NCBI GenBank assembly: GCA_051439505.1
Contig: JBFRWI010000037.1
Span: 1 to 19,637, forward strand
Direction: 5' to 3'
DNA from: Hormoscilla sp.
Lineage (GTDB): Bacteria > Cyanobacteriota > Cyanobacteriia > Cyanobacteriales > Desertifilaceae
DNA: 19,637 nt
Below the pieces are notes generated by a model that was not told the DNA's origin, made no database searches, and was given only the letters and a program-made list of their open reading frames with translations. The position numbers and the translations under genes were made by a program. Below are positions 1,503 through 19,637 of this stretch, one piece after another (position 1 is the stretch's first letter; the number at the start of each line of letters is the position of its first letter).

Positions 1503-1527
1503 GGCTCTGGCTCCTTGTATGATAATT

Positions 1528-1563
1528 GCTAATTGTCAATTACCATGGCAATTAACAATTAGC
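1528..1563 (-). terminator. Stem-loop between pnp and the cyclase gene (terminator or mRNA-stabilising hairpin built from CAATTA(A/G)-type heptamers)
   Basis: The minus strand reads GCTAATTGTTAATTGCC-AT-GGTAATTGACAATTAGC. Both imperfect positions are G-U pairs on this strand only. It lies about 18 nt after the pnp stop and has no clear U-tract. Confidence 0.5.
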
Positions 1564-1581
1564 GACTCGTGACAGGACAAT

Positions 1582-3729
1582 TTAGTTAACGGTTTCGCGA
1601 GCAGCCGCAGCTTCGTCGGGGTGAATTCCCAGACGAGTGAGATTAATCCGGCCCTTTTCGTCGATCCCGCGCACCTTCACGATCACCTCATCACCAACAT
1701 TTACCTCGTCCTCTACTTTGGGAACGCGGTAATCAGCTAGCTGGGAGATGTGAATCATCCCTTCCTTTCCGGGCAGAAACTCCACAAAGGCACCAATACC
1801 AATAATCCGGGTAACGCGACCCACAAAGACATCACCCTGATTGATTTTTTTGGTCATGCCCACGATGATGTTGCGTGCCTCCCGGGCTTTATCGCCATTG
1901 ATGGATGAGATAATCACCGTGCCATCGTCTTCAATGTCTACCTTAGCACCTGTTTGTTCGGTAATGCCCTTGATGGTCTTACCGCCCGGGCCGATAATCA
2001 GACCGATCAGTTCTGGAGCGATCTTCATCATTAACAAGCGCGGTGCATAGGGCGACATCTCCTCACGCGGTGCGGAAATCGTTGAAAGCATTTTCTCTAG
2101 GATATGCATCCGCGCTGGTTTGGCCTCATTAATCGCTTGGGCAATCACCGACAGGGGCAAACCGGTGAGTTTCATGTCCAGTTGCAGGGCCGTGATTCCC
2201 GTGTCCGTCCCTGCTACCTTGAAGTCCATATCTCCCAGGAAATCTTCAATTCCCTGAATATCGGTGAGAATGCGAATTTCTTCTCCTTCCTTGATCAAAC
2301 CCATCGCTGCACCGCTGACTGGTTTAATCAGGGGGACTCCCGCATCCATCAGGGACAGGGTGGAACCGCAGACCGAACCCATTGATGTGGAACCATTGGA
2401 AGATAGCACTTCCGATACTACCCGGATCACGTAGGGAAAATCTTCTTTCGCTGGTATTACCGGCGCTAAGGCCCGTTCCGCCAGGGCGCCATGACCTATT
2501 TCCCGCCGTCCGGGCGATCGCATGGGTTTGGTTTCCCCCACGGAGTAGGGCGGGAAGTTATAGTGGTGGAGATAGCGCTTCTCAAAGTCGGGATGGAGGT
2601 CATCCATTTCTTGAGCATCTCCCGAGGTTCCCAAGGTGACTATAGACATCACCTGAGTTAGACCCCGGTTAAACAAGGCGCTACCATGTACCCGCGTCGG
2701 CAAAACTCCTACCTGGCAAGAGATGGGACGCACTTCATCTAGTTTGCGACCGTCAACCCGGACACCCTCTTGCACGATTTGCGCCCGCATCAATTCCTTG
2801 GTAACCTGCTTGAAGGTATTGCCTACTGCTGCTGAGTTAGCTTCCGCAGCAATGCGGATCTCCTCGTCCTCGCCCAGTTCTCCTATGGGAACGACTACTT
2901 CGGTTTCCTTAATCTCATCTAATGCTGTATCCCGCTGATGCTTGTCCAACTCGTACTGAGACAGCACTGCTTTGATCTTGGTGGTGGCGCGATCGCGGAT
3001 AAAATTCTCTAGAGTCGGGTCTACTGTCGGGGGTTCGGCCACAACCTTTTCTATACCCAGTTCCTCCATCAGCTCAAGCTGTGCTTTAATCAGGTCGCAG
3101 ACTGCCTCATAGCCGAAGTCGATCGCTTCTATGATATCCCGTTCTGGTAGCTGGGATGCTCCCGCCTCTACCATAATTACGCCATCGGGAGAACCGGCGA
3201 CCACCAGGTCTAAATCCCCATTTTCCAGTTCGCTATAGGTGGGGTTGATCACGAAGTCATCCCCCATTAACCCCACCCGCACAGCTGCCATTGGTCCGTT
3301 AAAGGGGATCTTCGCTAGCAATACCGCGATCGAAGCACCCGTCACCGCCAGTACATCTGGAGGCACCCGATCGTCCATCGACAGGGTCGTCGCCACTATC
3401 TGGATTTCATCCCGCAACCATTGTGGAAACAATGGACGCAGGGGACGGTCGATTAACCGGCTCGCCAGAATGGCCTTTTCCGCAGGACGGCCCTCGCGGC
3501 GCAAGAAACCTCCTGGTATCCGCCCCGCTGCGTACAGTCTTTCTTCGTAATCTACCAGCAGGGGCAGAAAATCAATCCCCTCTCTTCCCGGTGCCCTGGT
3601 TGCCGTCACTAAAACGGCTGTATCTCCCGATTGAATCAGTACCGAACCATTCGCCTGTGGCGCAAATACTCCTACTTTGAGTCGAATATCCCGTCCGTCA
3701 AAGGATATTGACTTGTCTATCTCTCCCAT
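1582..3729 (-). CDS. pnp: Polyribonucleotide nucleotidyltransferase (PNPase)
   Basis: 715 aa with [55 protein letters not shown] and [13 protein letters not shown]. The KH ([10 protein letters not shown]) and S1 (EGMIHISQL) domains are present. Confidence 0.99.
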
Positions 3730-4115
3730 GCAACACTATGCCCTTTAGTTTTCTCTTGTTTATTTCCTAATAGTCGCAATCCTAGCATTGATATCCCCAG
3801 TTGGTCCCTGTCATATCTGCTTGTACCCCACTGCAAGTCAACATCTACTGTAAGTATTTGACTATATTTATCATCGTTTGGCGCTTGTCAAGCATCATTG
3901 GGCGGATGATAGCCAAAAACCGGGTTTGGTGAGTCTTTCAGGATCCAGGCTGTATTAGCATATATACTATAATTGTCTATGAGTAAAAAGATTAATTTTG
4001 CGAGGCTGTTGCTGGATGCATTTTTCGCCATGGGTTGTATAATACCGCTGTGAGCGATCGGCGAGCGGTGATCGGAAAATATCACCATAAACAATTGGCA
4101 ATTAAAAATTAAAAT

Positions 4116-7100
4116 ATGGGAATTTTACACGGGAGTTGGTTAAGTCAGGGTGAGTTGTTGATTTGGGGAGAAACCTGGCGCTTCGATATGGCGGTGAAAG
4201 TTACTCAATTGGATGGGAAATATCGCCATCCTTTGGGGATGACATCAGCCGATCTGCAATCTTTTTGGGAAACTATACAACAGCAGCATCAAATTAGTTG
4301 GTCAATACCGCAGCAAGAGGTGAAATGGCAATCTCAGGTGATTTCACTGCCAACTAAGATCGCCCTCTTAACTACAAGCCGCAGAAAAGGCTTGCGTTCC
4401 CAGGCGGTAGCCAGGAAACGAGAAGAAGAAGGTTTATTTTCAGCTGCACCTCAGCATTCATCTGCACTACCAGAGGATGGAGAGTTGTTTTTGTTTCCCT
4501 GGGAAGTGGAAGGACTCTGCTTAAATACTAAGGCGACAATCGAGTTTTTGCAAGCTTTGCCCCTGTCCGGGCGAGAGGATGCTTGGTTAGGGTCAGATCT
4601 GCGCTTTTGGTCTCACCTCTATCGCTGGAGTCTGGATTTATTGGCCAGAGGTAAGTTTTTGCCCACCCTCAAGGGGAATGTCGCTTGCTGGCAACCTCTG
4701 TTAGATAGCAGTATAGACCAATCCCGTCTGGCTCATTTTGCTCGGACTATGCCAGATATTTGTCGCAGCTATATGGTTCCTAGGGTAAACACTAAAGTGT
4801 TTACTACGAACAGAAACGATTTGCCGATCGCACCTCAAGATTTGATTGGGGAATTCTTGAATAGGGCGATCGATTCCCAAGTTCGCCTTGTCGCGAATGC
4901 CAATACCCTGCCAAGGACTGCATCCCCAGTACGAGACTGGTTACAAGCTTTAACTTCCGCAAATGGTACCATGGCAGCAACCGGGATAGAAAGCATTTCG
5001 GGGGCGATCGATAATTGGACGGCACCGGTACAACAGCTGCTACAAGGACGGCAAGGTTTCTTGACTTGCTTTAAGCTACATCCTCCTCGTCACGAAGATT
5101 GGATGTTGGAGTATTGCTTGCAAGCAGCCGATGACCCCGAATTTATTGTAGATGCAACTACTATATGGAATAATCCTGTCGAACGCTTGGTGGTGCGCGA
5201 TCGCGCGATCGAACAACCCCAAGAAACTTTCCTGAGTAGTTTGGGTTTAGCTTCCCGGTTATTCCCACCAATTGAAGCCAGTTTAGAAACCCCACGTCCC
5301 CTGTTCTGTCGCCTAACACCGGTGCAAGCCTATGAGTTTATTAAGTCGGCGGCCTGGCGTTTCCAAGATAGCGGTTTAGCAGTAATTTTACCCCCATCTC
5401 TGGCCAATAGAGAAGGGCTTGCTAGTCGCTTGGGGTTAAGTATTCGGGCCACCAATCCTAAGTTGAAAAAGACGGAAAAAATTGGGTTGCAGAGTCTGCT
5501 CAATTTTAAGTGGGAATTGACGATCGGGCAACAGCGTTTGTCGGAAGCTGAATTTAACGAACTGATCTCTCGGGGTTCTCCCTTAGTGCAAATAAATGGG
5601 GAATGGGTGGAGTTGCGACCTCAGGATGTCCGCGCTGCTGAAGAGTTCTTTGCCAGTCGCCAAGACAAGGTGAATCTTTCTTTAGAAGATGCCTTGCGGA
5701 TCGCTACGGGGGATACCCAGACAATCGAAAAGCTGCCAGTTGTCAGTTTTGAGACGTCAGGCGTACTGCAAGAGTTACTTGCTAACTTAACAGATAATAA
5801 ATCTATAGAGGCGATCGCGACTCCGGCCAATTTCCGAGGCGAGTTGCGTCCTTACCAGGCCCGGGGCGCTGGTTGGCTGGCATTTTTGCAGCGCTGGGGT
5901 TTGGGTGCTTGTCTGGCAGATGATATGGGGTTGGGAAAGACGATCGAACTGATTGCTTTTCTGCTACACCTTCAAGGACAAGATGCCCTCATAGCACCGA
6001 CCCTGCTAGTTTGTCCTACTTCAGTATTAGGGAATTGGGAGCGAGAAGTCAAGCGATTTGGCCCCAGCCTGAAAACTCTGGTGCATCACGGGGATAAAAG
6101 GGCTAAGGGTAAGGCTTTTGCTCGGACTATTAAGGAACGGAATTTGATCCTTACCAGTTATAGTCTCGCTTTCCGAGATGAAAAGGAACTCTCAAGTGTG
6201 GAATGGCAAGCTGTGGTTTTGGATGAGGCCCAGAATATTAAAAATCCCGGCAGCAAGCAGTCCCAAGCGGTGCGTCAGTTACAGACAGAGTGGCGCATTG
6301 CCCTCACGGGAACGCCAGTAGAAAATAAGCTGCAAGAGTTGTGGTCGATTATGGATTTTCTCAATCCCGGCTATTTGGGTACGCGGCAATTTTTCCAGCG
6401 CCGGTTTGCCATGCCCATAGAGAAGTATGGAGACCCCAATTCTTTGCAGACCTTGCGATCGCTTGTTGGACCCTTTATCCTCCGCCGCCTGAAGACCGAT
6501 CGGGATATCATCCAAGATTTGCCCGAGAAACAGGAGATGACGGTATTCTGCGGACTATCCTCAGCACAAGCGGAACTATATCAAGAGGTTGTAGATAAGT
6601 CCTTAAGCAAGATCGATTCATCTGATGGCATCATGCGTCACGGATTAATTCTAGCTTTGCTGACTAAACTCAAGCAAATCTGCAATCATCCCGCCCAATT
6701 CCGCAAGCAAAAAACCTTGACAAATCCCACCGAATCTAGTAAACTGATGCGGTTAGAGTCAATGCTGTCAGAGGCGATGTCAGAGGGAGATCGGGCTTTA
6801 ATCTTCACCCAATTTGCGGAATGGGGTAAACTGCTAAAACCCTATCTGGAACTGCAACTGGGCAGCGAAGTGTTGTTGCTCTACGGTAACACGCGGAGGA
6901 GCGATCGCGAAAAGATGGTCGATCGCTTCCAGCAGGATCCTCAAGGACCGAAAATCATGATTATGACTCTGAAAGCGGGGGGCGTGGGACTGAACCTCAC
7001 TCGGGCAAATCACGTATTTCACTTCGACCGTTGGTGGAACCCAGCGGTGGAAAATCAAGCAACCGATCGGGCCTTCAGAATTGGTCAAACCCGCAACGTG

Positions 7101-7283
7101 CAGGTACATAAGTTTGTTTGTAGTGGTACTTTGGAGGATAAAATTCACGAAATGATTGAAAGTAAAAAACTGCTAGCAGAACAAGTAGTAGGTACGGGAG
7201 AAGAGTGGTTAACAGAACTGGATAGCGAGCGGTTGCGGGATCTGTTATTACTCGATCGCAGTACCATAATAGATGAAGAATAG
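4116..7283 (+). CDS. SNF2-family (SWI2/SNF2) helicase/ATPase with a long N-terminal extension
   Basis: 1055 aa with LRPYQ, Walker A LADDMGLGKT, Walker B DEAQ, ALTGTPVEN, FILRRLK, LKAGGVGLNLTRANHVFHFDRWWNPAVENQATDRAFRIGQ. Confidence 0.96.
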   Translation: MGILHGSWLSQGELLIWGETWRFDMAVKVTQLDGKYRHPLGMTSADLQSFWETIQQQHQISWSIPQQEVKWQSQVISLPTKIALLTTSRRKGLRSQAVARKREEEGLFSAAPQHSSALPEDGELFLFPWEVEGLCLNTKATIEFLQALPLSGREDAWLGSDLRFWSHLYRWSLDLLARGKFLPTLKGNVACWQPLLDSSIDQSRLAHFARTMPDICRSYMVPRVNTKVFTTNRNDLPIAPQDLIGEFLNRAIDSQVRLVANANTLPRTASPVRDWLQALTSANGTMAATGIESISGAIDNWTAPVQQLLQGRQGFLTCFKLHPPRHEDWMLEYCLQAADDPEFIVDATTIWNNPVERLVVRDRAIEQPQETFLSSLGLASRLFPPIEASLETPRPLFCRLTPVQAYEFIKSAAWRFQDSGLAVILPPSLANREGLASRLGLSIRATNPKLKKTEKIGLQSLLNFKWELTIGQQRLSEAEFNELISRGSPLVQINGEWVELRPQDVRAAEEFFASRQDKVNLSLEDALRIATGDTQTIEKLPVVSFETSGVLQELLANLTDNKSIEAIATPANFRGELRPYQARGAGWLAFLQRWGLGACLADDMGLGKTIELIAFLLHLQGQDALIAPTLLVCPTSVLGNWEREVKRFGPSLKTLVHHGDKRAKGKAFARTIKERNLILTSYSLAFRDEKELSSVEWQAVVLDEAQNIKNPGSKQSQAVRQLQTEWRIALTGTPVENKLQELWSIMDFLNPGYLGTRQFFQRRFAMPIEKYGDPNSLQTLRSLVGPFILRRLKTDRDIIQDLPEKQEMTVFCGLSSAQAELYQEVVDKSLSKIDSSDGIMRHGLILALLTKLKQICNHPAQFRKQKTLTNPTESSKLMRLESMLSEAMSEGDRALIFTQFAEWGKLLKPYLELQLGSEVLLLYGNTRRSDREKMVDRFQQDPQGPKIMIMTLKAGGVGLNLTRANHVFHFDRWWNPAVENQATDRAFRIGQTRNVQVHKFVCSGTLEDKIHEMIESKKLLAEQVVGTGEEWLTELDSERLRDLLLLDRSTIIDEE

Positions 7284-7309
7284 GTTTGTAGTAAGCGCAA
7301 AGCGCGCTT
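7283..7309 (+). repeat. GTAG-type short palindromic dispersed repeat (REP/SDR-like), copy 1
   Basis: GGTTTGTAGTAAGCGC (7283-7298) is the exact reverse complement of 17104-17119. It is followed by an imperfect AAGCGC...GCGCTT stem. Confidence 0.6.
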
Positions 7310-7350
7310 CTTCGATCGAAAAAATTTGCAATTAACCGGAGGATGAGATA

Positions 7351-8166
7351 ATGAATTCGACAATAGCACGGGAATGGTGGACCGAAAGATGGTTAGAACT
7401 GTTAGATAAATATCGTTTCAAGAAGCGTTTAGAAAGGGCGCGGAACTATGCGCGAGAGGGAAATGTTCTCAGCATTGAGTTTCGAGACCAGAAGGTAGTG
7501 GCGAAAGTCCAGGGTTCAGAAGCAGAACCCTACCAACTGTCAATCTGGATGGATACTTTCACGGATGAAGAATGGAATTATGTAATTGAAACCATGTCCC
7601 AGCGGGCAATATTTGCCGCCAAGTTGCTGGCGGGGGAAATGCCCGATAATATAGAAGAGGTGTTTACGGCCAATGGGTTGAGTCTTTTTCCCTTTACCCT
7701 GCAAGAAGTCGGATCGCAATGCAGCTGTCCGGATAAAGCTAATCCTTGCAAGCATATAGGGGCGGTTTACTATTTGCTGGCCGATCGCTTCAGCGAGGAT
7801 CCCTTTGTGCTATTCCAGTTACGGGGACGTAAAAAAGAGCAAATCATCGGCCAACTCCGCCAGCTAAGAAGTGCCGAACCAGAGGAGTCTAATAATAATA
7901 AATCTGAGAACGAACCGGAAAGTACCAACTTTCAACCTCCCCAAATTGACCAATTCTGGAAATACGAGGCCCAACTGGATCCCGCCCTAGTGGTAATAGC
8001 GCCACCACCAAGTAATGAAACAATTATCGACGTCTTAGGAACGATACCTTTACCAGGGTCAGCAGGAAAAGCGGAAAATGCCGAAGCAGTAATGCAGTAT
8101 TTGCAGACAGTTTATCAGCAGGTAAGTCAGCAGGCAATTATGGCCGCGTTGCATCTAGATAATTAA
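7351..8166 (+). CDS. SWIM zinc-finger protein (SNF2-associated)
   Basis: CSCPDKANPCKH (CxC...CxH) SWIM motif, RLERARNYAREG and DPFVLFQLRG. GGAGG RBS upstream; directly downstream of the SNF2 gene. Confidence 0.92.
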   Translation: MNSTIAREWWTERWLELLDKYRFKKRLERARNYAREGNVLSIEFRDQKVVAKVQGSEAEPYQLSIWMDTFTDEEWNYVIETMSQRAIFAAKLLAGEMPDNIEEVFTANGLSLFPFTLQEVGSQCSCPDKANPCKHIGAVYYLLADRFSEDPFVLFQLRGRKKEQIIGQLRQLRSAEPEESNNNKSENEPESTNFQPPQIDQFWKYEAQLDPALVVIAPPPSNETIIDVLGTIPLPGSAGKAENAEAVMQYLQTVYQQVSQQAIMAALHLDN

Positions 8167-8305
8167 ACGGAGGGAAAATGCGAATTATCAATCTTAAATT
8201 GGTTGAGAATTCGCCGACTACTAAAAACCAGGTTTCGCAGCGCAGCCCCCAGAGGCGAGCAGTTACCTGGTTGATAAGATACCACAATTTTTTGAGATTG
8301 CTAAA

Positions 8306-8545
8306 TCACTGCAAAAGACTTTCTATTTCTTCATCAGTAAATCCAAATTGTCTCAAAATTCGCAGCACATAATGTGGTGAAAATTCCCTATATCCCATAT
8401 CGATGGGAACAACTCTTCTGCTCTTGTCCAACTCACGGCTATACAATCGATGGTCACCTTTCCCCTCTCGGTAGAAAATGCAGCCGCCAAGCCTTAAAAT
8501 ACGAATCAGCTCTCTTGGTTTGAGAGAAGGAATGTTCTTAGGCAT
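8306..8545 (-). CDS. hicA: HicA-family toxin (mRNA interferase)
   Basis: 79 aa, basic: IPSLKPRELIRIL...REGKGDH (G-x-H catalytic His)...VLRILRQFG. It overlaps the 3' end of the upstream antitoxin gene by 8 nt. Confidence 0.85.
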   Translation of the reverse strand: MPKNIPSLKPRELIRILRLGGCIFYREGKGDHRLYSRELDKSRRVVPIDMGYREFSPHYVLRILRQFGFTDEEIESLLQ

Positions 8546-8804
8546 GTATCGCCCTCAATTCATAGGTTTGCTGAGTAGGTTCTTGTTGTTCCAGAGTCAA
8601 AAATTCATGCAGTTCCTTAATAGGCACCGGTGCTAGATAAATGTTATCTTCTGATTCATAAACTTCTTGAAAGGACTCGATCGCCTCTTGAAGCTTGCTA
8701 ATAGCATCAGCTTGGGTGATTCCTTGACCGACTATACCATTCTCCAAACACAAAGCAACCCAGTAACTTGCGCTTTGACTCAATACCACCGTGTAAAAAT
8801 CCAT
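8538..8804 (-). CDS. hicB: HicB-family antitoxin, short form (88 aa, no obvious C-terminal DNA-binding domain)
   Basis: MDFYTVVLSQSASYWVALCLENGIVGQGITQADAISKLQEAI fits the HicB N-terminal pattern and the protein is acidic. The start was moved from 8900 to ATG 8804 because GAGGA lies just upstream of it. Confidence 0.8.
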   Translation of the reverse strand: MDFYTVVLSQSASYWVALCLENGIVGQGITQADAISKLQEAIESFQEVYESEDNIYLAPVPIKELHEFLTLEQQEPTQQTYELRAIHA

Positions 8805-8893
8805 GACTATTCCTCTATGAGAGAACTGCACTATCATATTAGCAAGGATCGCCAATGCCCAGGTTCGATCGTGGCGGACTTTAGTCCTTGCAC

Positions 8894-8923
8894 TTGACAT
8901 GGCCAGATAAAACAGCTTATAAT
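8894..8923 (+). promoter_or_regulatory. Consensus sigma70-type promoter upstream of tlyA
   Basis: TTGACA (8894-8899), 18-nt spacer, TATAAT (8918-8923). Both hexamers are perfect matches. Confidence 0.65.
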
Positions 8924-9044
8924 TTATGTTACCATAAAAGCTAGATGTTTGACATAAATATTAGGCTCATTGACAGATATAATAAATAGAGAATGGATGT
9001 CAAACTCCTCCTGGGGAGATAATTAGACCAGAAGAGAAAAACCC

Positions 9045-9857
9045 TTGGCGAAACAACGAATCGACAGTTTATTGGTAGAATTGAAATTATGCGAGTCGCG
9101 CCAGCTGGCCCAGCGGCTAATTCTGGCTGGAGAAGTAATGGTAAATCAGCAGGTGATTGACAAACCTGGCACGACCGTAGATACTAACTCCCAGATTAAG
9201 GTAAAGGCCCGATCGCCCTTCGTCTCCAGAGGCGGGGAAAAGCTACGAGGGGCCCTAGAGGAGTTTGCCATACCGGTGCAAGACCGGGTATGCTTAGATG
9301 GTGGCATTTCCACAGGTGGTTTTACTGACTGTTTGCTGCAAGCGGGGGCGGCACTGGTTTATGCTATTGATGTGGGCTACGGACAAGTTGACTGGCGCTT
9401 GCGTCAAGACCCCAGGGTGATATTGCTCGAACGTACCAATTTGCGATATCTTACTCCCGATCGCCTGTACGATGGCGCCGAACCAGCAGATTTAGGAGTG
9501 GTGGATGTCTCGTTTATCTCCCTGACCAAAATTATGCCTGCACTTTGGCAGCTACTTTCGCCTCCCAAAGAGGTAATATTGTTGGTGAAGCCGCAGTTTG
9601 AAGTCGGACGCGGGCGCGTCGGCAAAAAAGGAGTGGTCCGAGACCCCCAAGACCGGGCTAATGCAATACTACAAGTGTTGCAAACAGCATTACAGCTGGG
9701 GTGGCGCGATCGGGGCTTAATCCGATCGCCCTTAACCGGTCCAGCGGGTAATAGAGAATATCTCCTCTGGCTAGCAAAGTCCAGCGAGATGCCAGGGCTG
9801 ACACCCGAGGAGATATCGGCGATCGCCCAAGCTGGCCCAAAAGGCGATATCAACTAA
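9045..9857 (+). CDS. tlyA: TlyA-family rRNA (cytidine-2'-O)-methyltransferase (S4 + FtsJ-like domains)
   Basis: KQRIDSLLV (S4), FVSRGGEKL, LDGGISTGGFTDCLLQ, DVSFISL, LVKPQFEVG, GPAGNREYL. TTG start. Confidence 0.95.
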   Translation: MAKQRIDSLLVELKLCESRQLAQRLILAGEVMVNQQVIDKPGTTVDTNSQIKVKARSPFVSRGGEKLRGALEEFAIPVQDRVCLDGGISTGGFTDCLLQAGAALVYAIDVGYGQVDWRLRQDPRVILLERTNLRYLTPDRLYDGAEPADLGVVDVSFISLTKIMPALWQLLSPPKEVILLVKPQFEVGRGRVGKKGVVRDPQDRANAILQVLQTALQLGWRDRGLIRSPLTGPAGNREYLLWLAKSSEMPGLTPEEISAIAQAGPKGDIN

Positions 9858-9889
9858 CAAGTAAGTTCTTTGGGATCTAGCAAGATTAA

Positions 9890-10645
9890 ATGAACAGCAA
9901 AAACCAGCAGCAAATCATCTATATATTATTGACGCGGATAATCATTTATCTCGGGGTGATATCTATTGTTCTAGCTGTGGTGAGGTGGCTGAAAATATTA
10001 TCAATTTGGTTCGCAGATAAATACTTATACAGTATTTCCTTGATCGGCGATATATTGCGAAGTGTAGAAATAATCGATATGGCAAATATCTTATTATTTG
10101 CCATACTAGGAATGGCATTTGGCTTGGCAAGCATCCTCTTGCCCAGGAAGCTGAGGGGGAAAATCAGCGCTATACTTTTAATTCCGATAGTGCCCATAAT
10201 ATTTAATATCACTAGCATCATCAGATACAGGCAATGGGTAGAAGCAGTGGGATATCAAGAGAAACTTTCTCCGGCTGAAGCTAAAGGTCTAACTAATGCA
10301 TTTTTGACCAGTCAAGTGGGAAAGAAAGGCTTCTGGGGTTTCTATTTATATACGGCAGCATATCCCATGATCCCTAAAAATAAAATCGAAATGCGGGAAA
10401 TGAAAAAAATCGATGATAAACTGAAATTAGGATTGATTAAAATTGTCGGTGAAAAATTCTCTTTGCCGGTCAAATTAATGTTTGCACTGGCAGGCTGGTT
10501 GATAAAATTGTTTTATTTTACCATCTCACTCATAGCAACAATTTCCCATTTTAAGTATGGGATGAGCGCATCGGAAATGCTGCACTTGCAAGCAGACAAA
10601 ATTATCGAAAAACTTAATCAATCTGATAGAAAATATGGCTCGTAA
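9890..10645 (+). CDS. Hypothetical integral membrane protein (about 4-5 hydrophobic helices)
   Basis: 251-aa ORF with hydrophobic stretches (IIIYLGVISIVLAVV, ILLFAILGMAFGLASILL, ISAILLIPIVPIIF, LMFALAGWLIKLFYFTISLIATI). It starts 32 nt after tlyA. Confidence 0.8.
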   Translation: MNSKNQQQIIYILLTRIIIYLGVISIVLAVVRWLKILSIWFADKYLYSISLIGDILRSVEIIDMANILLFAILGMAFGLASILLPRKLRGKISAILLIPIVPIIFNITSIIRYRQWVEAVGYQEKLSPAEAKGLTNAFLTSQVGKKGFWGFYLYTAAYPMIPKNKIEMREMKKIDDKLKLGLIKIVGEKFSLPVKLMFALAGWLIKLFYFTISLIATISHFKYGMSASEMLHLQADKIIEKLNQSDRKYGS

Positions 10646-10765: not shown

Positions 10766-12085
10766 TTAAGGGAAAAGTTCCTGGCGTAGACGATAGATAA
10801 TTGTGTGAGAGTCTGCCCGATCGAGAATGGATCGAATCACGGTATTAGCACCATTAGGTCCCCAGGTACAACCTTGTTCGAGATAAACTTGGGCGGCGGT
10901 TCCTACCTTGTAAGCACCATATCCAGCTAAACAAGCTTGGGCGATCGCGGCCCCGCCAAAACCGGTAATTGCAGAAGCACCGGTAACAGCAGCAGTAGTT
11001 TTGCCCAACCCAAAGAGCAAACTACTGCCCACTTCACCCAAAACCAAGCCCCCAGAACTAAACACAATCGTCTTCCACAGCTTACTAGCAGTATAGTTGG
11101 TCATGGGTAAATTATAGAGCTTTCCTAACTCCCGAATCAAAGCTAAATCAGTCACCGCCCCTCCCATAATATCTAATAGGGCGATCGGGTTTACGCCCAC
11201 AGCTATGGCCTTATATCTAGTAAATTGCCAAATCAACTCTTCCGCTTGTTCGCTGCGGTATTCAACAGTTTTGCTCGCAATGCTAGTTTCCGCTTCTCGG
11301 GCCTGGACCAGGGCATTCAGCGCTAAAAGCGATCGCCCTTCCCGGTTGAGCAAATCTATGATTTTCTGCCGTAACTCATCCAGCTGGGGTGGGGGAGTTT
11401 CCCACTCATAACTAATGCTACCATCAGGCAACTCCACCCGCACCTTTCTGGACATGGGTGCCGCCGCCACCCGAACAATTTCATTGCGAGTCAGTAAGTT
11501 GCCACCAGTGCCTCCTAGTTGTTGTAGCTTCTGGTAAATTGCCTCTAAGTCCTGTTCGGGATAGAGGTCGATCTTGTTAAATACCAAAATTAAGGGTTTT
11601 TGAGCTTGCTGAAGGTACAGCAGTGCATCATACTCAGTACGGGTAATATCTCCAGCGACCACAAATAAAATTAAGTCTGACTGCTGCGCCACCTGCTGGG
11701 CCATCTGCGATCGCACTTGACCTGCTATTTCATCTAATCCCGGCGTGTCAATTAACTCCACCTGCACCTTTCCACCATTCGTCCACCGAACAGATCTGGG
11801 CCATTGAGTCACTCCATGAATGGGACCAGTTTGCAGGATATTTTCCCCCAGTAAAGCATTCAAAACCGCTGACTTACCGCGACTGACTAGACCAAAAACC
11901 GCGATTTTGATTACAGTATTATCCAGTTTATCCAGTACCGACTTCAACTTCTCCAGTTCCGGTTGCACCGGCAGCGATCGCATGCGACCATGTCCGTATT
12001 GAGACAGGGCTTGCCTGATACTAGCACGAGCTTGATTTAGGTGAACTTCTTGGCCTAACCCATCATCCGATTTATTCTTTCCCAT
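10766..12085 (-). CDS. Era/MMR1-like GTP-binding protein with a C-terminal DUF697/YcjF-like region
   Basis: G1 GLVSRGKS, G3 DTPG, G4 NKID. The C-terminal NPIALLD...DLALIRELGKLY and Gly/Ala-rich hydrophobic segment are typical of this cyanobacterial family. GAGG RBS upstream. Confidence 0.88.
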   Translation of the reverse strand: MGKNKSDDGLGQEVHLNQARASIRQALSQYGHGRMRSLPVQPELEKLKSVLDKLDNTVIKIAVFGLVSRGKSAVLNALLGENILQTGPIHGVTQWPRSVRWTNGGKVQVELIDTPGLDEIAGQVRSQMAQQVAQQSDLILFVVAGDITRTEYDALLYLQQAQKPLILVFNKIDLYPEQDLEAIYQKLQQLGGTGGNLLTRNEIVRVAAAPMSRKVRVELPDGSISYEWETPPPQLDELRQKIIDLLNREGRSLLALNALVQAREAETSIASKTVEYRSEQAEELIWQFTRYKAIAVGVNPIALLDIMGGAVTDLALIRELGKLYNLPMTNYTASKLWKTIVFSSGGLVLGEVGSSLLFGLGKTTAAVTGASAITGFGGAAIAQACLAGYGAYKVGTAAQVYLEQGCTWGPNGANTVIRSILDRADSHTIIYRLRQELFP

Positions 12086-12369: not shown

Positions 12370-14577
12370 ATGGAAATAGATGAAGATGTCAAGGCATTCC
12401 TAGTGGAAAGCAACGAAAACCTGAATCAGCTAGAGGGGGACTTGGTAGCCTTGGAGCAAAATCCCGCTGACCAAGAACTGCTCAACCGCATTTACCGCGC
12501 CCTTCACACCCTGAAAGGCAACTGCGGCTTCCTGGGTTTGGAAAAACTGCAATCAGTTGCCCATGCTGCCGAAAACCTCCTCAGTTTCCTGCGCGATCGG
12601 GCCTTAACAGTCAACCCGGAAATCGCTAGCGCCCTGCTACAAGTAATAGACGCAGTGCGGCAAATTCTCACCACTCTGGAGGGGACCGGTTCGGAAGGCG
12701 ATCGGGACGACACGGCATTGGTAGAGACATTGCAGCAACTGCAAGGGGGCAACCCTCCAGTTGCTGAGACAGAAAGTACCACAGAAATTTTACCTCATGC
12801 TCCATCGCCGCTCCCGGAAGTCCACACTGCCACGGTGGCTGACAGTTCCATCCGAGTGGATGTTAACTTGCTAGATAAATTAATGAATCTGGTGGGGGAA
12901 CTGGTTTTATGCCGCAACCAGTTGGTAGAATTTGCGGCCCAACAACAGGCAGCTTCCAGACAGACAGACAGCAAATTTGTGGCGACGTCCCAGCGCTTAA
13001 ATCAGGTGACGGCAGAGTTGCAGGAAGGGGTGATGAAAACCCGGATGCAACCCATCCGCACCATCTGGAGTAAATTCCCCCGCCTGGTGCGGGACTTATC
13101 GGTCAACCTGGGTAAGCAGATACAGCTGGAGATGGAGGGGGAAGACACGGAACTGGATAAGACCTTGATCGAGGCGATCGCGGATCCGTTGATCCACTTA
13201 GTACGCAACTGTGTTGACCACGGCATCGAACAGCCCGAGGTCCGTACTGCCCTGGGGAAACTAGCTACTGGACGGCTGTTTCTGCGAGCATTTCACGAAA
13301 GCGGTCACGTCAATATTGAGATTTCCGATGACGGGGCGGGCATCGACTCGAACCGCATTAAGGAAAAGGCCCTAGAACGGGGTCTGATCGGTGCCGAAAA
13401 GGCCAATCAGATGGGGGACCAGGAGGCTCAAAACCTGATTTTCCTACCGGGCCTTTCCACGGCCACCCGAGTCAGCAACCTCTCAGGGCGGGGCGTGGGC
13501 ATGGATGTGGTGCGGACGAATATTGAGAAAATCAACGGCACCGTTGATGTCTACAGTCCGGCACCATCCCGGGGCACTACCTTTAAGCTGAAGATTCCCC
13601 TGACTCTGGCAATTATCCCCACCCTCATTGTCACTAGCAAAAGCAATGGCCCAGGGGGTATACAGTACGATCGCTACGCTATTCCCCAGGTCAACCTGTT
13701 AGAACTGGTGCGTCTGGAAGGATCTCAGGCCCGCCGAGGTATAGAAATGGTGCATCGGGCACCAGTGTATCGCTTGCGGGGACGTCTGTTGCCCTTGGTT
13801 GATTTAAACCGGGAACTGAACTTAGAGGTCTCCCCCCAAGAAGAGGACAGGGATACTTTGAATATCGTCGTTCTCCAAGCTACGGACAAACCCTTCGGCC
13901 TCGTAGTAGATGCCATCAATGACACCCAAGAAATAGTGGTTAAACCCCTCGGTAAACAACTCAAAGGCATTCCCTGTTTTGCTGGTGCTACTATTATGGG
14001 AGACGGCAAGGTAGCATTAATATTAGATGTGCAAGGACTTGCTGCCAGGGCCCATGTACTATCCGAAGCGATCGGACCCACTGTAGCTGAGTCCAAGAGT
14101 CAGTCCCAGCAAGAGTCCGGCGGTGTTGCCAGTCAGCAGCATCGCGATCGGCTCATGTTGTTGCTGTTTGCTGGACCGGACAATCGACGGATGGCAATTA
14201 GCCTGTCCCGGGTGGCCCGCTTAGAAGATTTTCCCGGTCGGGCCATCGAACGCACCGGTCTAATGGATGTCATCCAATATCGCAATCAAATTCTGCCCCT
14301 GATTTATCTGTCCGCCTGCTTTTCCTCTGGTAGTTACTTGCCGATGGAGGCTACCGCAGATGATAAAATCCAGGTAGTCGTGGTGCATGTGAATGGAGAG
14401 CATATGGTAGGACTGGTGGTCGATCGCATCCTGGACATTGTCGAACAAGAGATCGAAGTCAAAGGCGCAGCTACCCAAGAGGAAGTGCTTTATTCGGCAG
14501 TCATTCAGGGTCGGGTCACTGAACTTATAGATGTCGAAGCCGTAATCAGAAATAATTTAGTTGGTGCCATGCCATGA
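12370..14577 (+). CDS. cheA: CheA histidine kinase: HPt - dimerisation - HATPase - CheW - second CheW; no P2, no receiver
   Basis: HPt [31 protein letters not shown]-box [31 protein letters not shown]. CheW-like 1 is RYAIPQ...[15 protein letters not shown] and CheW-like 2 is [12 protein letters not shown]...[11 protein letters not shown]...ELIDV. ATG 12370 (MEIDED) is preferred over TTG 12298 because AGGAGG lies upstream of it. Confidence 0.95.
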
Positions 14578-15017
14578 GTACTAACCGAATGGGGAGACCC
14601 ATAGAAATTCTCTTGGTTGAAGACAACCCCGGTGATGTGTTTTTGACCCAAGCTGCCCTGGAAGATGCCAAGATTAACAATAATCTGCACCTAGCAGTAG
14701 ACGGCGAAGAAGCGATCGCCTTTCTCTTCCGACAGGGAGAGTATGGTGATGCGCCTCGTCCCGACGTTATCCTCCTGGACTTAAACCTGCCGAAAAAAAA
14801 TGGTCGGGAAGTCTTGGCGGAAATTAAGAATGACGATCGTCTCAGGCGGATCCCAGTAGTTATTCTCACTACCTCAAGTTCTGACCAAGACATCCTGAAA
14901 AGCTACAACCTGCACGCCAACTGCTACATCACTAAACCCATTGACCTAGAACAGTTCGGTCATGTGGTTAGGTCGATTGAAAATTTTTGGTTCACGATCG
15001 TCACTCTACCACCTTGA
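14574..15017 (+). CDS. Single-domain response regulator of the Rcp1/RcpA (phytochrome-associated) type
   Basis: [48 protein letters not shown] and C-terminal IENFWF match the Rcp1-type pattern. ATGA overlap with the cheA stop. Confidence 0.92.
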
Positions 15018-15079
15018 TGATAATTGACAGGGGTTATTGTTAAAGGAACAACGGAAAATTAAGAACAGAAAATTAATAA

Positions 15080-15520
15080 ATGACAGAAGAACGACAATTA
15101 TGTACTTTTTTTCTTGGCGAACTCTTCTTTGGCATCGAGGTGTCCAATGTGCAAGAGATTATTCGCTATCAGGAGATGACGCGAGTGCCCCTAGCGCCAA
15201 CAGAAGTGGGGGGGTTGATTAATCTTCGGGGTCAGATCGTGACGGCGATCGACTTGCGGCGGCGCTTGGAATTGGGCGATCGCCCCAGCGATCGACTGCC
15301 CCTGAATGTGATCGTCCGCACCAGCGAGGAAACTGTCAGCCTACTGGTAGACGAGATTGGGGACGTGCTAGAAGTAGGGGGTGACAACTTTGAAACTCCT
15401 CCGGAAACTCTCAGAGGCAGGATACGAGAATTGATCCGGGGAGCCTATAAACTGAAAGAGAGGTTACTGCTGCTCCTAGATGTGGAGAAAGTTGTCGATT
15501 TGGCGGAAGTGTCTGCTTGA
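15080..15520 (+). CDS. cheW: CheW coupling protein
   Basis: QLCTFFL...FGIEVSNVQEII...TRVPLAP...GLINLRGQIVTAIDLRRRL...LLVDEIGDV...LLLLLDVEKV. Confidence 0.95.
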   Translation: MTEERQLCTFFLGELFFGIEVSNVQEIIRYQEMTRVPLAPTEVGGLINLRGQIVTAIDLRRRLELGDRPSDRLPLNVIVRTSEETVSLLVDEIGDVLEVGGDNFETPPETLRGRIRELIRGAYKLKERLLLLLDVEKVVDLAEVSA

Positions 15521-15524
15521 CATG

Positions 15525-15566
15525 GTAGGTGGTAAGTTGTAAGTTGTAAGTTTTCGGTTGTAAGTT
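15525..15566 (+). repeat. Heptamer tandem repeat (GTAAGTT)n, STRR-like
   Basis: GTAGGTG-GTAAGTT-GTAAGTT-GTAAGTT-TTCGGTT-GTAAGTT in 7-nt register, directly after the cheW stop. Confidence 0.75.
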
Positions 15567-15674
15567 GTCCACTAACTACTGACCATTGAGCAATAATACC
15601 ATGCAGTCAAAATCCCAAATTTGATTAATCGGTTTTAACTCACATCTTGCACCATTCTCAATTGCTCTCCTGGC

Positions 15675-15775
15675 CCGCCGGGGCCCCGGCGGTATGACTT
15701 TCTCGACAATGCTAGAGAGTGGGTTTTAACCCACTTTAGCTATTAGCCGGGGGTTTGAACCCCCGGCGGGATGAC
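15675..15775. repeat. Cluster of palindromic REP/SDR-like hairpins upstream of parA
   Basis: Perfect 18-bp palindrome CCGCCGGGGCCCCGGCGG (15675-15692); AGTGGGTT-TT-AACCCACT (15718-15735); GCCGGGGG-TTTGAA-CCCCCGGC (15746-15767). The first and last both end in CCCCGGCGGnATGAC. Confidence 0.7.
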
Positions 15776-15796
15776 AGCGTAGTTACTGTAATTATA

Positions 15797-16615
15797 GTGT
15801 TAAAAACAGCAGCATCTATTGCCTTCGTAAATATCAAGGGGGGGACGGGTAAAACTACTACCTGCATCAATGTTGCTGGCTATCTTGCCAAAAGCAGCAG
15901 TGAGAAGAAAGTATTAGTAGTAGATTTCGATCCCCAAGCTAATGCCACATCCGGTTTGGGTATTGACGGCTCTAGTCTAGAATACTCGATCTATGATGCC
16001 CTCTTAGATCGGTGTGAAGGCTACAGTGGCGTTCCTATTACCCAGATTATTCTGGAAACGGATGTAGAAAACCTCCATTTAGCCCCATCGGAATTGCATT
16101 TGGGAACTTTACCAATGGTGATGCAGCAGGTTAAAGATCGCGTCGGTCTCTTGCGCCGGATCCTGGAACCCGTGCTAGGGTTTTATGACTATATTTTGAT
16201 TGATGCTCCCTCAGATGCAGGTTTGTTTATGTTGAACAGCTTGCGGGCCGCCGATCGCCTAGTCGTCCCCCTTGACTCTAGCATCTTCTCTCTGGAAGCC
16301 CTGGAAAACTTGAAGATCTATTGCGCCGACCTAGAGGAAATGACCGGTCACCCGATCGGGCAATTCACAATAGTTTTGAATCGCTATAGCAAATCTAAGC
16401 ATACATCAAATAAGTCCAGCAAGTCCAGCCCATCGGAGGAAGTTGAAGCTACTCTCAAACAAATGCACGAGCATATTTTTACGATCCCCGAATCTCTCTT
16501 AATATATAGATCGCAGCAAGAAGGTATTCCCTTATCACACTTGGCTCCCACTAGCAAGATCGCTAAGGATTATCAGGCGATCGCCAATCATTTGGCCTTG
16601 GTTCGTGGTAAATAG
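15797..16615 (+). CDS. ParA/Soj/MinD-family ATPase
   Basis: Deviant Walker A NIKGGTGKTT, VVDFDPQANAT, YDYILIDAP, AADRLVVP. GTG 15797 is preferred because the track's TTG 15755 lies inside a repeat hairpin. Confidence 0.92.
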   Translation: MLKTAASIAFVNIKGGTGKTTTCINVAGYLAKSSSEKKVLVVDFDPQANATSGLGIDGSSLEYSIYDALLDRCEGYSGVPITQIILETDVENLHLAPSELHLGTLPMVMQQVKDRVGLLRRILEPVLGFYDYILIDAPSDAGLFMLNSLRAADRLVVPLDSSIFSLEALENLKIYCADLEEMTGHPIGQFTIVLNRYSKSKHTSNKSSKSSPSEEVEATLKQMHEHIFTIPESLLIYRSQQEGIPLSHLAPTSKIAKDYQAIANHLALVRGK

Positions 16616-16672
16616 TAGGGTGGGCACCGCCCACCAGAATGTGTTTTTTACCAGCTGGTGCAAGACCACACC

Positions 16673-16796
16673 ACGTGAGTTCGACGGCGACGATAACCAT
16701 TATTTTTCGTCGGGTTATGGATCGCGCTCAACCCCCATGATTGCGTTGGAGAGCTCCCTAACTACGAACTACGAACTACGAACTACGAACTCACGT
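16673..16796. mobile_element. 124-bp MITE-like element
   Basis: 11-bp terminal inverted repeats ACGTGAGTTCG (16673-16683) / CGAACTCACGT (16786-16796). CACACC direct repeats flank it immediately (16667-16672, 16797-16802). No transposase. Confidence 0.75.
16760..16791 (+). repeat. Heptamer tandem repeat (AACTACG)x4.5
   Basis: Exact units at 16760, 16767, 16774 and 16781, plus a partial unit merging into the right TIR of the MITE-like element. Confidence 0.9.
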
Positions 16797-17093
16797 CACA
16801 CCCGTTCCTATCGGGCAATGTGCCATTTTCTATTCCCATTGGTAATTGGTAATCTCAGGATATATGCTCTCCGGCACTTGACACAGATAAGTAGGCGGAC
16901 AAAAATATTTACACATTCGGAAAGTTGGCTTAACTGCGATGGTGGTGGGCGGTGCCCACCCTACTATGCAAAATGACCTGATGGGCCGATGTTCTCGTGT
17001 AAATCAGGAAAAATACTCATAAATAATTGCGGGACTGCTGTTAAAGTGTGAAATTGGCAAGCAAATGCAACGGTGAAAAAAGTAATACCCACC

Positions 17094-17119
17094 AAGCGCT
17101 AAAGCGCTTACTACAAACC
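17094..17119 (-). repeat. GTAG-type short palindromic dispersed repeat, copy 2
   Basis: AAGCGCT-AA-AGCGCTT-ACTACAAACC. It shares 16 bp with 7283-7298 in inverted orientation and ends 2 nt before the AGGAG RBS. Confidence 0.65.
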
Positions 17120-17134
17120 CTAGGAGAAGTATAA

Positions 17135-19637
17135 ATGGTCGAGCAGAAAAAGCGCAAGCCCGGTCGTGCCGTATTTTTTCAAGACATAGAAGTAGTTGAA
17201 GCTAATTCAGAAGAAGAGGAAATGGAAGAACAATCAGCGAGTAATTCTGTAGAAACAAGAGTAAATGACCGGGATAGCAAATTGATTTTATCTGCCTTGA
17301 AAGCCGCCAGAGACGGTGATTTTACCAGGCGCCTTTCAGCAGATAACGGTCTCGGAGAAATTGCTACCGTCTTTAATGAAATGATGATCGCTAACCAAAA
17401 TTTTAGCAAGGAATTGGTTCGCGTCAGCCAGACCGTCGGTGAAGCAGGCAATTTGACCGATCGGGCAGCGATCGCCACTGGTCCCTGGTCAACGACTATC
17501 GATGCAGTTAATGGGCTGATCGATAACTTGACCCAACCGACAACGGAAATCTCCCGAGTATTAACCGCAGTAGCAACTGGCGATCTCTCCCAGAAAATGG
17601 CCCTAGAAGTTGCTGGCAAACCCTTGCAGGGGGAATTTGCACGCATAGGCGCGATCGTCAACAGCATGGTAGACCAATTGAATGCTTTTGCTTCAGAAGT
17701 TACCCGGGTAGCGCGAGAGGTAGGTACCGAAGGGAAGCTGGGAGGACAAGCCCAAGTTGCGGGGGTAGAAGGCACCTGGAAGGATCTAACTGAAAACGTG
17801 AACTTGATGGCAGCTAATCTTACCAATCAAGTGCGCAATATTGCCACAGTGACCACCGCCGTAGCGAAGGGAGATCTGTCCCAGAAAATCACCGTCGAAG
17901 CCCAAGGAGAAATTCTCCAACTGAAGAATACTGTCAATATAATGGTCGATCGCCTGAACACCTTTGCCTCGGAAGTAACCCGAGTAGCAAAGGAAGTGGG
18001 CAGTGATGGGAAGCTAGGGGGTCAAGCCCAAGTCCAAGGGGTCGAAGGAACCTGGAAGGATCTGACCGAAAACGTCAATGCCATGGCAGACAACCTCACC
18101 AACCAGGTACGTAACGTGGCGAAAGTGGCCACGGCCATTAGTGTCGGAGATTTGAGTCAAAAGATTACCGTGAACGCCCAAGGGGAAATCCTGCAACTGA
18201 AAGACACCATCAACCAAATGGTCGATAGCCTGAACAGCTTCGCCTCGGAAGTGACGCGGGTAGCCATAGAAGTGGGTACCGAGGGCAAGCTGGGTGGTAA
18301 AGCAACAGTCAAAGGGGTCGCCGGCACATGGAAAGACCTGACCGATAATGTGAATCTGATGACCACCTATATAACCAATCAGGTGCGCAGCATCGCCCAG
18401 GTAACTACCGGCGTTGCCCAAGGAGATTTGTCCCAGAAAATTACCACCGACGCGAAAGGAGAATTCCTGGAACTGAAAAGTACCGTCAACCAGATGGTCG
18501 ATCGGCTGAATGACTTTTCGAGTGAAGTGACGCGGGTGGCGCGGGAAGTCGGAATAGAAGGGCAACTGGGCGGTCAAGCCAAAGTAGAGGGCGTAGCTGG
18601 CACTTGGAAGGAACTGACGGATAATGTAAATTTCATGGCTGCTAACCTGACGGACCAAGTGCGGAATATCGCGGAAGTATCCACAGCAGTAGCCCAAGGA
18701 GATTTATCGCAGAAAATCACGGTAGAGGCCCAAGGGGAAATTCTGGAGTTGAAGAATACCCTGAACACCATGGTGGATCAACTAAATGCCTTTTCCAGTG
18801 AAGTCACCCGCGTGGCCCGTGAAGTAGGTACCCAAGGGCAACTGGGCGGTCAAGCCAAAGTAGAGGGCGTGGCAGGCACCTGGAAGGAATTGACGGATAA
18901 TGTTAACCAAATGGCTAGTAACCTTACTAGCCAAGTGCGGAACATCGCGTCAGTTTCCACAGCAGTGGCCCAAGGAGATTTATCAAAGAAAATTACTGTG
19001 GAAGCCCAAGGGGAAATTCTCGAACTCAAGAATACCCTGAACACAATGGTCGATCGACTAAATGGCTTTTCTAGTGAAGTGACGCGGGTGGCCCGTGAAG
19101 TAGGTACCCAAGGGCAACTAGGCGGTCAAGCCAAAGTGGAAGGGGTAGCTGGCACCTGGAAGGAATTGACGGATAATGTGAATTTCATGGCTGCTAACCT
19201 GACAGACCAAGTGCGGAACATCGCGGAAGTGTCCACTGCTGTAGCCCAAGGAGATTTATCGAAGAAAATAACTGTCGAGGCCCAAGGGGAAATTCTGGAA
19301 CTGAAGAATACCCTCAACACCATGGTGGATCAACTCAATGGCTTTTCCAGTGAAGTCACTCGTGTAGCCCGTGAAGTAGGTACCCAAGGACAGTTGGGCG
19401 GTCAAGCCAAAGTAGAGGGAGTTGCCGGTACTTGGAAGGAATTGACGGATAATGTCAATTTAATGGCTACTAACCTGACAGACCAAGTGCGGAACATTGC
19501 GTCAGTTTCCACAGCAGTGGCCCAAGGAGATTTATCGAAGAAAATCACTGTCGAGGCCCAAGGGGAAATTCTGGAACTGAAGAATACCCTCAACACCATG
19601 GTGGATCAACTCAATGGCTTTTCCAGTGAAGTCACTC
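17135..19637 (+). CDS. Soluble poly-HAMP protein (92-aa repeats of the Nik1/Os-1/OsaA type); chemoreceptor or hybrid kinase, C-terminus outside the window
   Basis: ATG 17135 with AGGAG at 17122. [15 protein letters not shown]...[14 protein letters not shown] is followed by repeats of [67 protein letters not shown]. No stop seen over 834 codons and no transmembrane segment. Confidence 0.93.
17690..19637 (+). repeat. 276-bp intragenic tandem repeat (about 7 units)
   Basis: Codons for TWK recur at 17774, 18050, 18326, 18602, 18878, 19154 and 19430, an exact 276-nt period. Confidence 0.95.

Follow-up and report, generated by a model that had tools for sequence, protein, structure and literature searches.

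What does a chemosensory system of a flagellar class do in cells without flagella? This question is raised by a contig of the cyanobacterium Hormoscilla sp. (JBFRWI010000037.1, here C37, from assembly GCA_051439505.1, here genome G000), whose entire length of 19,637 bases is the window analyzed here. The assembly comprises 6.47 Mb and is 93% complete, and relatives of its genes are labeled by genome (G), locus (L), and contig (C). As a first-pass annotation had described, and as open reading frames (ORFs) and Pfam confirmed, five co-oriented genes on the plus strand encode a CheA kinase, a single receiver, CheW, a ParA-type ATPase, and a soluble poly-HAMP protein. With moderate confidence, we read the window as the first half of an F5 chemosensory cluster, in which the poly-HAMP protein is a receptor that is likely to end in a 38H signaling domain, is predicted to dock ParA by residues 1 to 15, and probably has kinases, not a motor, as its target. 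What appears to be new is ParA together with a co-varying receptor peptide, the kinase-type HAMP rod, and the conserved nonmotor output. Statements credited to cited papers refer to the portions of their text that were available.

CheA class and the two halves of the cluster

The cheA gene (12370..14577) was assigned from Pfam, motifs, and trees. Its product has an Hpt domain with His46, dimerization and HATPase domains, and two CheW domains, with the kinase boxes present, and Pfam returned no P2 or receiver family for it. The second CheW domain is a mark of the F5 class, in which 99% of CheAs have two (PMC10782961). In a quick tree, supported by Shimodaira-Hasegawa-like approximate likelihood ratio test (SH-aLRT) values only and no bootstrap, the window CheA lay inside a 68-row clade (SH-aLRT 99) with two-CheW CheAs of Azospirillum and Rhodovastum; the six other CheA rows of the genome and an F1 reference lay outside it. 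Reference sequences carried the F5 label by architecture, gene order, and PMC10782961. The class definition in PMC10746217 combines gene order (AW...BR) with an additional CheW domain and with receptors of the 38H type. The window supplies cheA-(receiver)-cheW and a second contig, C149, supplies cheB-(REC-CheC)-cheR, the join being drawn from genomes G002 and G600. Judged by its sequence, the window CheA is a member of this known class, which reportedly goes back to Wuichet and Zhulin in 2010. The order cheA-cheW-receptor-(cheY)-cheB-cheR recurred in 80 loci of other genomes (cheW in 75, a receptor in 56, cheB in 52, cheR in 52). The Pix/Pil type of the type IV pilus class, already set aside by the first-pass annotation, has CheAs with a C-terminal receiver and often more than one Hpt domain, and does not fit a CheA that has one Hpt domain and no C-terminal receiver and lies outside the clades of the genome's other CheAs.

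The annotation's further claim of an undescribed system did not survive this placement. Table S2 of PMC10782961 lists cheaF5 proteins of this exact architecture in at least 18 cyanobacteria, with examples from Trichodesmium, Calothrix, Nostoc, and Leptolyngbya, and in 2018 such clusters, related to Corallococcus Cc-5, were recognized in silico for Calothrix PCC 7507 and for Nostoc PCC 7107 (PMC6194562); the five-gene order is moreover only half of a cluster. The annotation's refuting case, a CheA of an already characterized cyanobacterial class, applies at the level of classification only; no experimental study of a cyanobacterial F5 system was found in open-licence papers and preprints. The listed cheaF5 entries and the PCC 7507 and PCC 7107 clusters share the CheA architecture and core genes with the window, but ParA, the peptide, the poly-HAMP receptor, and the output module all go unmentioned in the available portions of these accounts, which are in silico. 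Compared with the F5 class at large, the system shares the two-CheW CheA, the AW...BR order, and the tree placement with Azospirillum two-CheW CheAs; the 38H type is seen in orthologs of the window receptor. It differs in that no flagellar motor gene was found, the CheA bears no receiver, and a cheY-cheC-PAS enzyme module, Rcp1-type receivers, and ParA have been added.

The single-receiver gene (14574..15017) overlaps the cheA stop codon with its start (ATGA) and was typed by family and structure matches, including Rcp1 and RcpA structures at E values of 3e-43 (1jlk) to 1e-45; congener G002 has it in the same place. Its product is 58% identical to a second Rcp1-type copy on C149. The cheW gene (15080..15520) was called by Pfam.

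C149 carries, in order, cheB, REC-CheC, cheR, a PAS kinase, an Rcp1-type receiver, a REC kinase, cheY, and cheC. Around an orthologous cheA in Microcoleus (L021), the surrounding genes have their best G000 matches on this contig. In G002, a 5' piece of cheA adjoins the same flanking GTPase gene as in the window, a DUF697 gene (10766..12085, minus strand) that is outside the system and marks the locus in congeners. About 140 kb further lie a cheA tail, an intact Rcp1 gene, HAMP, cheB, and cheC pieces, and then the C149 flank. This remnant order is the one predicted by joining C37 to reversed C149, and it links the halves; most of the remnants show 82 to 93% identity. In G004, a cheC piece lies beside the same C149 flank, and in G600 one scaffold, crossing a 100-N gap, holds cheA, a parA remnant, the poly-HAMP gene, the start of a signaling domain, and cheB. 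C37 and C149 very probably represent one locus, and cheB, cheR, and cheY, which the first-pass annotation suggested looking for downstream, were found on C149.

The two flanking DUF697 genes are not neighbors in congeners: in G002, a distance of 156 kb separates them, with order and strand conserved, and it was the remnants beside them that proved informative. Within L218:3341-15130 of G002, the Rcp1-type receiver is intact (88%), and cheA, the receptor gene, cheB, and cheC are broken. At L201 (G600:C105), three in-frame internal deletions join the PAS kinase with CheY, join CheA with the ParA tail, and shorten the receptor; these may reflect decay or an assembly fault. G000 as a whole has four cheB and four cheR matches and 13 receptor domains above the Pfam cutoff (contigs C26, C176, C226, C28, and C149). 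For a cyanobacterium, this adaptation-type set is large, and C26 carries a further full cheY-cheA-cheW-receptor-cheR-cheB-cheC cluster.

The poly-HAMP receptor and its ParA partner

The HAMP gene (17135..19637) runs to the contig end and is truncated, since the window is the whole of C37. It encodes at least eight di-HAMP units with a 92-residue period, of the Trp-bearing, AskA-like kinase type. No membrane helix is expected from a best 19-residue hydropathy of 0.88, in agreement with the soluble sensor first described. Its own end lies off the contig, but orthologs answer how such proteins finish. A cognate signaling domain of the methyl-accepting chemotaxis protein (MCP) type was seen in 32 of 39 oxygenic cyanobacterial clusters, a count that excludes the flagellated-lineage genomes G033, G040, and G064, and contig ends truncate the remaining 7. 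Pfam finds the domain in the poly-HAMP orthologs of G284, G080, and G619. The 13 complete rows of cognate receptors all have an arm of exactly 133 residues (19 heptads, 38H) beyond the hairpin tip. Close orthologs have 3 to 8 Trp-bearing repeats before it. We expect with high confidence that the window receptor ends in a 38H domain and would build a cytoplasmic array of CheA and CheW, with CheR and CheB providing adaptation.

Trp-bearing di-HAMP repeats have been assigned to kinases and a separate repeat type to chemoreceptors (PMC13446029). Because kinase-type repeats precede a chemoreceptor domain in the orthologs, these receptors look like chimeras. They have the 92-residue Trp-bearing repeat of AskA and the fungal group III kinases but fuse it to a chemoreceptor domain, an apparent exception to the recent split between kinase-type and chemoreceptor-type poly-HAMP proteins (PMC13446029). 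No ligand domain stands ahead of the repeats, and for that reason the proposed input is a physical condition inside the cell, osmotic or crowding stress for instance, sensed through the long HAMP rod. This is the weakest step of the mechanism and a doubtful one, osmotic sensing being borrowed by analogy from the fungal kinases.

The gene between cheW and the receptor encodes a ParA/Soj-type ATPase (15797..16615) with a deviant Walker A motif and a basic loop near residues 196 to 210, identified by Pfam and by a database gene call (P0001, 272 residues) that begins at 15797; an alternative, longer TTG start at 15755 falls inside a genome-wide repeat. Its best solved-structure matches are Soj/ParA proteins, Arg196 is present in 106 of 112 rows, and the basic loop has a median net charge of +5. 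A deviant-Walker-A, ParA-type ATPase encoded beside a soluble receptor is a PpfA-like arrangement. Among 401 genomes of the phylum, searches found this ParA subfamily in 2, and among 401 of the order in 6, all six times inside an F5 cluster; in the cyanobacterial genomes searched it occurs only beside F5 cheA. This agrees with the annotation's proposal that parA belongs to the cluster and probably positions the array. G454 has the window order cheA-cheW-parA-receptor, minus the receiver. In 50 genomes drawn from 79 noncyanobacterial F5 loci, many of them incomplete and searched with no positive control, this ParA was not found at E 1e-48. Among 16 loci from a metagenome scan with ParA, L156 alone belongs to this subfamily.

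On this short metagenome contig (L156:1094-2395) are a receiver, a 55%-identical ParA, and the start of a poly-HAMP protein with the peptide described below, possibly a view of the donor system. Many ParA relatives at 53 to 57% identity are named Chloroflexota or Wunengus, and atlas look-ups with ParA and the PAS domain returned only generic clusters.

The receptor opens with the peptide K-x-R-K-P-G-x-x-V-F-F (residues 5 to 16, 17147..17182), a predicted ParA-docking and activating site that is followed by a strongly acidic stretch. The peptide is present in all seven parA clusters with a visible receptor start, and K5, R7, G10, V13, and F14 are invariant over six sequences; the G600 receptor also has K-x-R and the aromatic pair. 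The 32 parA-less clusters with a visible start include no complete peptide, 7 partial forms, and 25 with nothing similar, and the background is 1 in 20316 ORFs of the genome itself. G080 and G302 lack both ParA and peptide, and their CheAs are sister to those of the parA-bearing clusters G619a and G665a. A search with the first 200 receptor residues was swamped by the repeats and gave no match to the strict pattern among its best 120 proteins; P0122 matches by eye.

The modeled complex contained ParA, ATP, Mg, and the receptor segment 1 to 40, each in two copies. It scored 0.70 versus 0.08 for the best control, with a partner predicted local distance difference test value of 50 to 52, and it passed the mark that 116 of 157 solved complexes and 2 of 215 mismatched pairs attain. 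At least 78% of contacts were the same between runs, and the contacts fall on receptor residues 4 to 15, the conserved peptide. In the model, Arg7 contacts ParA G55, I56, and G243, and ParA G55, I56, and D89 align with HpParA G51, F52, and Q79, which bind ParB Arg9 in a solved complex (PMC11229316). The model thus predicts that the receptor peptide docks on the ParA dimer at the known ParB site. As in the HpParA-ParB N10 complex (PMC11229316), the predicted site comprises the L23 and L34 loops and an Arg anchor, but the cargo would be a receptor array rather than a ParB-parS complex.

Basic N-terminal activators are a common theme of ParA/MinD systems, including TlpT and McdB (PMC7993993), and PpfA positions cytoplasmic arrays via the TlpT N terminus (PMC3964821, PMC11407121). 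In Rhodobacter sphaeroides, as here, the gene of the ParA-like ATPase adjoins that of a soluble receptor with a basic N-terminal extension. In contrast, the host and receptor here are different, and there is no flagellum to control; the closest solved structures to this ParA are of the Soj/ParA kind, and a similar way of working is proposed by analogy. It is likely that ATP-bound ParA dimers would coat the nucleoid and that Arg7 of the peptide would bind the ParB site and trigger hydrolysis, so that arrays are spaced and shared at division as with PpfA/TlpT. If true, a chemosensory array would join carboxysomes as nucleoid-positioned cyanobacterial cargo. The pair would also be a small, testable ParA-activator system, with a 12-residue peptide, a predicted key Arg, and natural loss controls. 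No mention of it was found in open-licence papers and preprints, among the portions available.

Several observations weigh against the pairing of ParA with the peptide. A complete peptide was defined as K-x-R and the aromatic pair at the same spacing, a rule set after the data were seen, and the profile was built from six sequences, so that five of these and the window match by construction. In four parA-less clusters of one genus the distal half is kept with Arg7 changed to Ser, and they score 36.7 versus 36.8 for G284; two of the four are in genomes without this ParA. G671, G556, and G606 have partial forms. Most cyanobacterial F5 clusters lack this ParA, and the parA clusters placed in the tree all fall in one CheA subclade; because the clusters are kin, the count amounts to about one gain with few losses and not to independent cases. 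Dispersed repeats flank parA, at 15718..15783 in the cheW-parA spacer (about 300 genomic BLAST matches) and at 16616..16970. The latter is part of a gap of 519 bp between parA and the receptor (16616..17134), which holds several dispersed repeats and measures 16 to 72 bp in three relatives and 337 bp in G284. The model's pass may be recall, because the site resembles solved ParA-ParB peptide structures (8jmj series), and its calibration is only rough, as own alignments and ligands were used.

Two other accounts of the receptor were weighed with these points. The N-terminal peptide could bind DNA directly or engage another partner, with ParA serving a different cargo. In Myxococcus, FrzCD binds the nucleoid by a basic N-terminal tail (PMC13446029, PMC5716589), and 7 of 32 clusters keep a partial peptide without ParA; however, the acidic stretch directly follows the peptide, the complete form tracks ParA, and the model puts it on the ParB site with controls near zero, all of which make this account quite unlikely. 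The HAMP gene could instead encode a hybrid histidine kinase of the AskA/Nik1 type beside che genes, and no array chemoreceptor. Its C terminus is unseen, and its Trp-bearing repeats are of the kinase type and match the AskA construct 9trk at E 6e-82. The N-terminal HAMPs are 59 to 62% identical to repeat proteins of other bacteria versus 59 to 60% to MA-ending orthologs. None of the 120 best repeat-protein matches, many of them partial, has an MCPsignal domain among precomputed domains, and several have GAF. No 3' end of the receptor gene was found on other contigs or contig ends of G000, no contig from four sequencing runs was seen to extend it, and the G002 remnant ends within the repeats. 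Against a kinase, all seven close, syntenic orthologs with a visible end (G284, G080, G302, G619a, G671, G495, and, across the 100-N gap, G600) carry a signaling domain at the position of a GAF-kinase-receiver module. Other G000 receptors are 35 to 50% identical to the cognate 38H domain, versus 60 to 97% for the cognate receptors of relatives. A kinase reading is very improbable, and we retain an array receptor that probably ends in a 38H domain and is predicted to dock ParA.

Output and history of the locus

Of the 39 clusters, 37 have cheY, 37 have cheC, and 37 have a gene headed by one conserved PAS domain. The fusion partners of this domain are kinases, hybrid kinases, or GGDEF-EAL, and receiver-cyclase or receiver-GGDEF genes lie nearby in several; in G000 it heads a kinase, followed by the Rcp1-type receiver and a receiver kinase. 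We lean toward a mechanism in which CheA would phosphorylate CheY, and CheY with CheC would act on the enzyme that carries the conserved PAS domain. In G000 this enzyme is a kinase that would feed Rcp1-type receivers, in relatives GGDEF-EAL proteins also occur in this role, and the output would be regulatory, such as adhesion or aggregation. From gene content, the output is likely to be kinases and cyclases and not a motor, as the first-pass annotation had supposed: the cheY-cheC-PAS module is conserved, and FliG was not found in G000, G284, or G619. By function, an alternate Caulobacter operon that affects the holdfast and not chemotaxis (bioRxiv 10.1101/528224) offers a precedent by analogy. 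The system offers a possible answer to the question raised at the outset, the role of a flagellar-class system where flagella are lacking.

In G284, cheY and cheC are fused in one open frame (L134:14685-15752). At L132, L137, and L142 (G064, G040, and G033), a PAS receptor and a receiver-DUF4388 protein stand in place of the cheC-PAS module.

F5 CheA was found in 16 of 401 phylum genomes and 32 of 401 order genomes, and once on a Nostoc plasmid. In a 51-row tree, built from 28 of 80 named loci taken from a scan of 4 of 64 collection parts and supported by SH-aLRT only, the 18 oxygenic cyanobacterial rows form one clade (98), and its sister group (96) consists of three genomes from a different lineage within the phylum. 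FliG is present in the two genomes of this sister lineage that were tested. Cyanobacterial counts exclude the two clusters of G105, which fall with the Azospirillum type. The tree and the FliG pattern fit inheritance from a flagellated ancestor with many losses, which is not proof of it; transfer or paralogy also occurs, as seen in the Nostoc plasmid copy, the double clusters of G441, G619, and G665, and the position of G284 outside its own family's group. We tentatively suggest that the F5 machinery of a flagellated ancestor was retained by oxygenic cyanobacteria and connected anew to a CheY-CheC-PAS enzyme output. One filamentous lineage would then have grafted on a kinase-type poly-HAMP rod and added ParA with its activating peptide, gained and lost together, to give a nucleoid-positioned cytoplasmic array.

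At L191, L192, L195, and L196 (G665, G619, G548, and G488), the cheA match has an in-frame TAA after about residue 726, with cheW close behind; this TAA is probably a gene boundary.

Closer to the window, a full F5 cheA was not found in any of the four congeners examined. From the congener remnants it follows that the cluster stood at this locus in the genus ancestor and then decayed in congeners. The annotation's view that the cluster is no recent import holds on this ground and not on the one it gave, HIP1 sites. Those at 13174, 14712, 15276, 16577, and 17468 were all verified, and the window has 18 versus 0.24 expected by chance. The cluster has 0.69 per kb versus 1.0 per kb genome-wide (P=0.27), and because the closest relatives are cyanobacteria too, such sites say little on transfer. 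HIP1 was dropped as uninformative evidence of age.

Decay in congeners is also what would be expected of a relic that is being lost and does no useful work. Broken or lost clusters with no full cheA in four of four congeners, remnants in G002 and G004, broken cheA genes in G302 and G495, and the G600 internal deletions all point that way. In G000, however, the four complete window genes and the eight C149 genes are open frames, and the Hpt His, the kinase boxes, Walker A, and the CheC E-x-x-N motifs are present, which leaves a relic improbable. A working array could still serve motility after all, steering gliding by type IV pili through CheY. F5 is a motility class elsewhere (PMC10746217), and the genome has other che clusters and the 13 receptor domains counted above. 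Against this, no PATAN-type receiver family was matched among the eight C149 cluster proteins and five window proteins, the conserved neighbors are CheC and PAS-headed kinases or cyclases, and the Caulobacter operon indicates that such systems can act on adhesion without chemotaxis. We regard pilus steering as unlikely, and favor the output to PAS-headed kinases and cyclases.

Reads and neighboring genes

DNA runs X1 and X2 showed similar read depth over the cluster and over its flanking sequence, which fits one organism. RNA run X5 yielded related-strain contigs over cheA and its junction with the receiver gene, over cheW and the HAMP gene, and over part of parA, as well as over several genes of C149. 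We did not count this run as support, because a flanking gene was covered and the contigs could be DNA; expression level and co-transcription are not readable from it. A 251-residue membrane protein (9890..10645) had no Pfam or NCBIfam match. The other genes at 3..10645 look ordinary: an FHA/GAF cyclase-like gene that the contig start truncates, a polynucleotide phosphorylase, a TlyA methyltransferase, and a pair that we take, from motifs, to be an SNF2 helicase and a SWIM-like partner.

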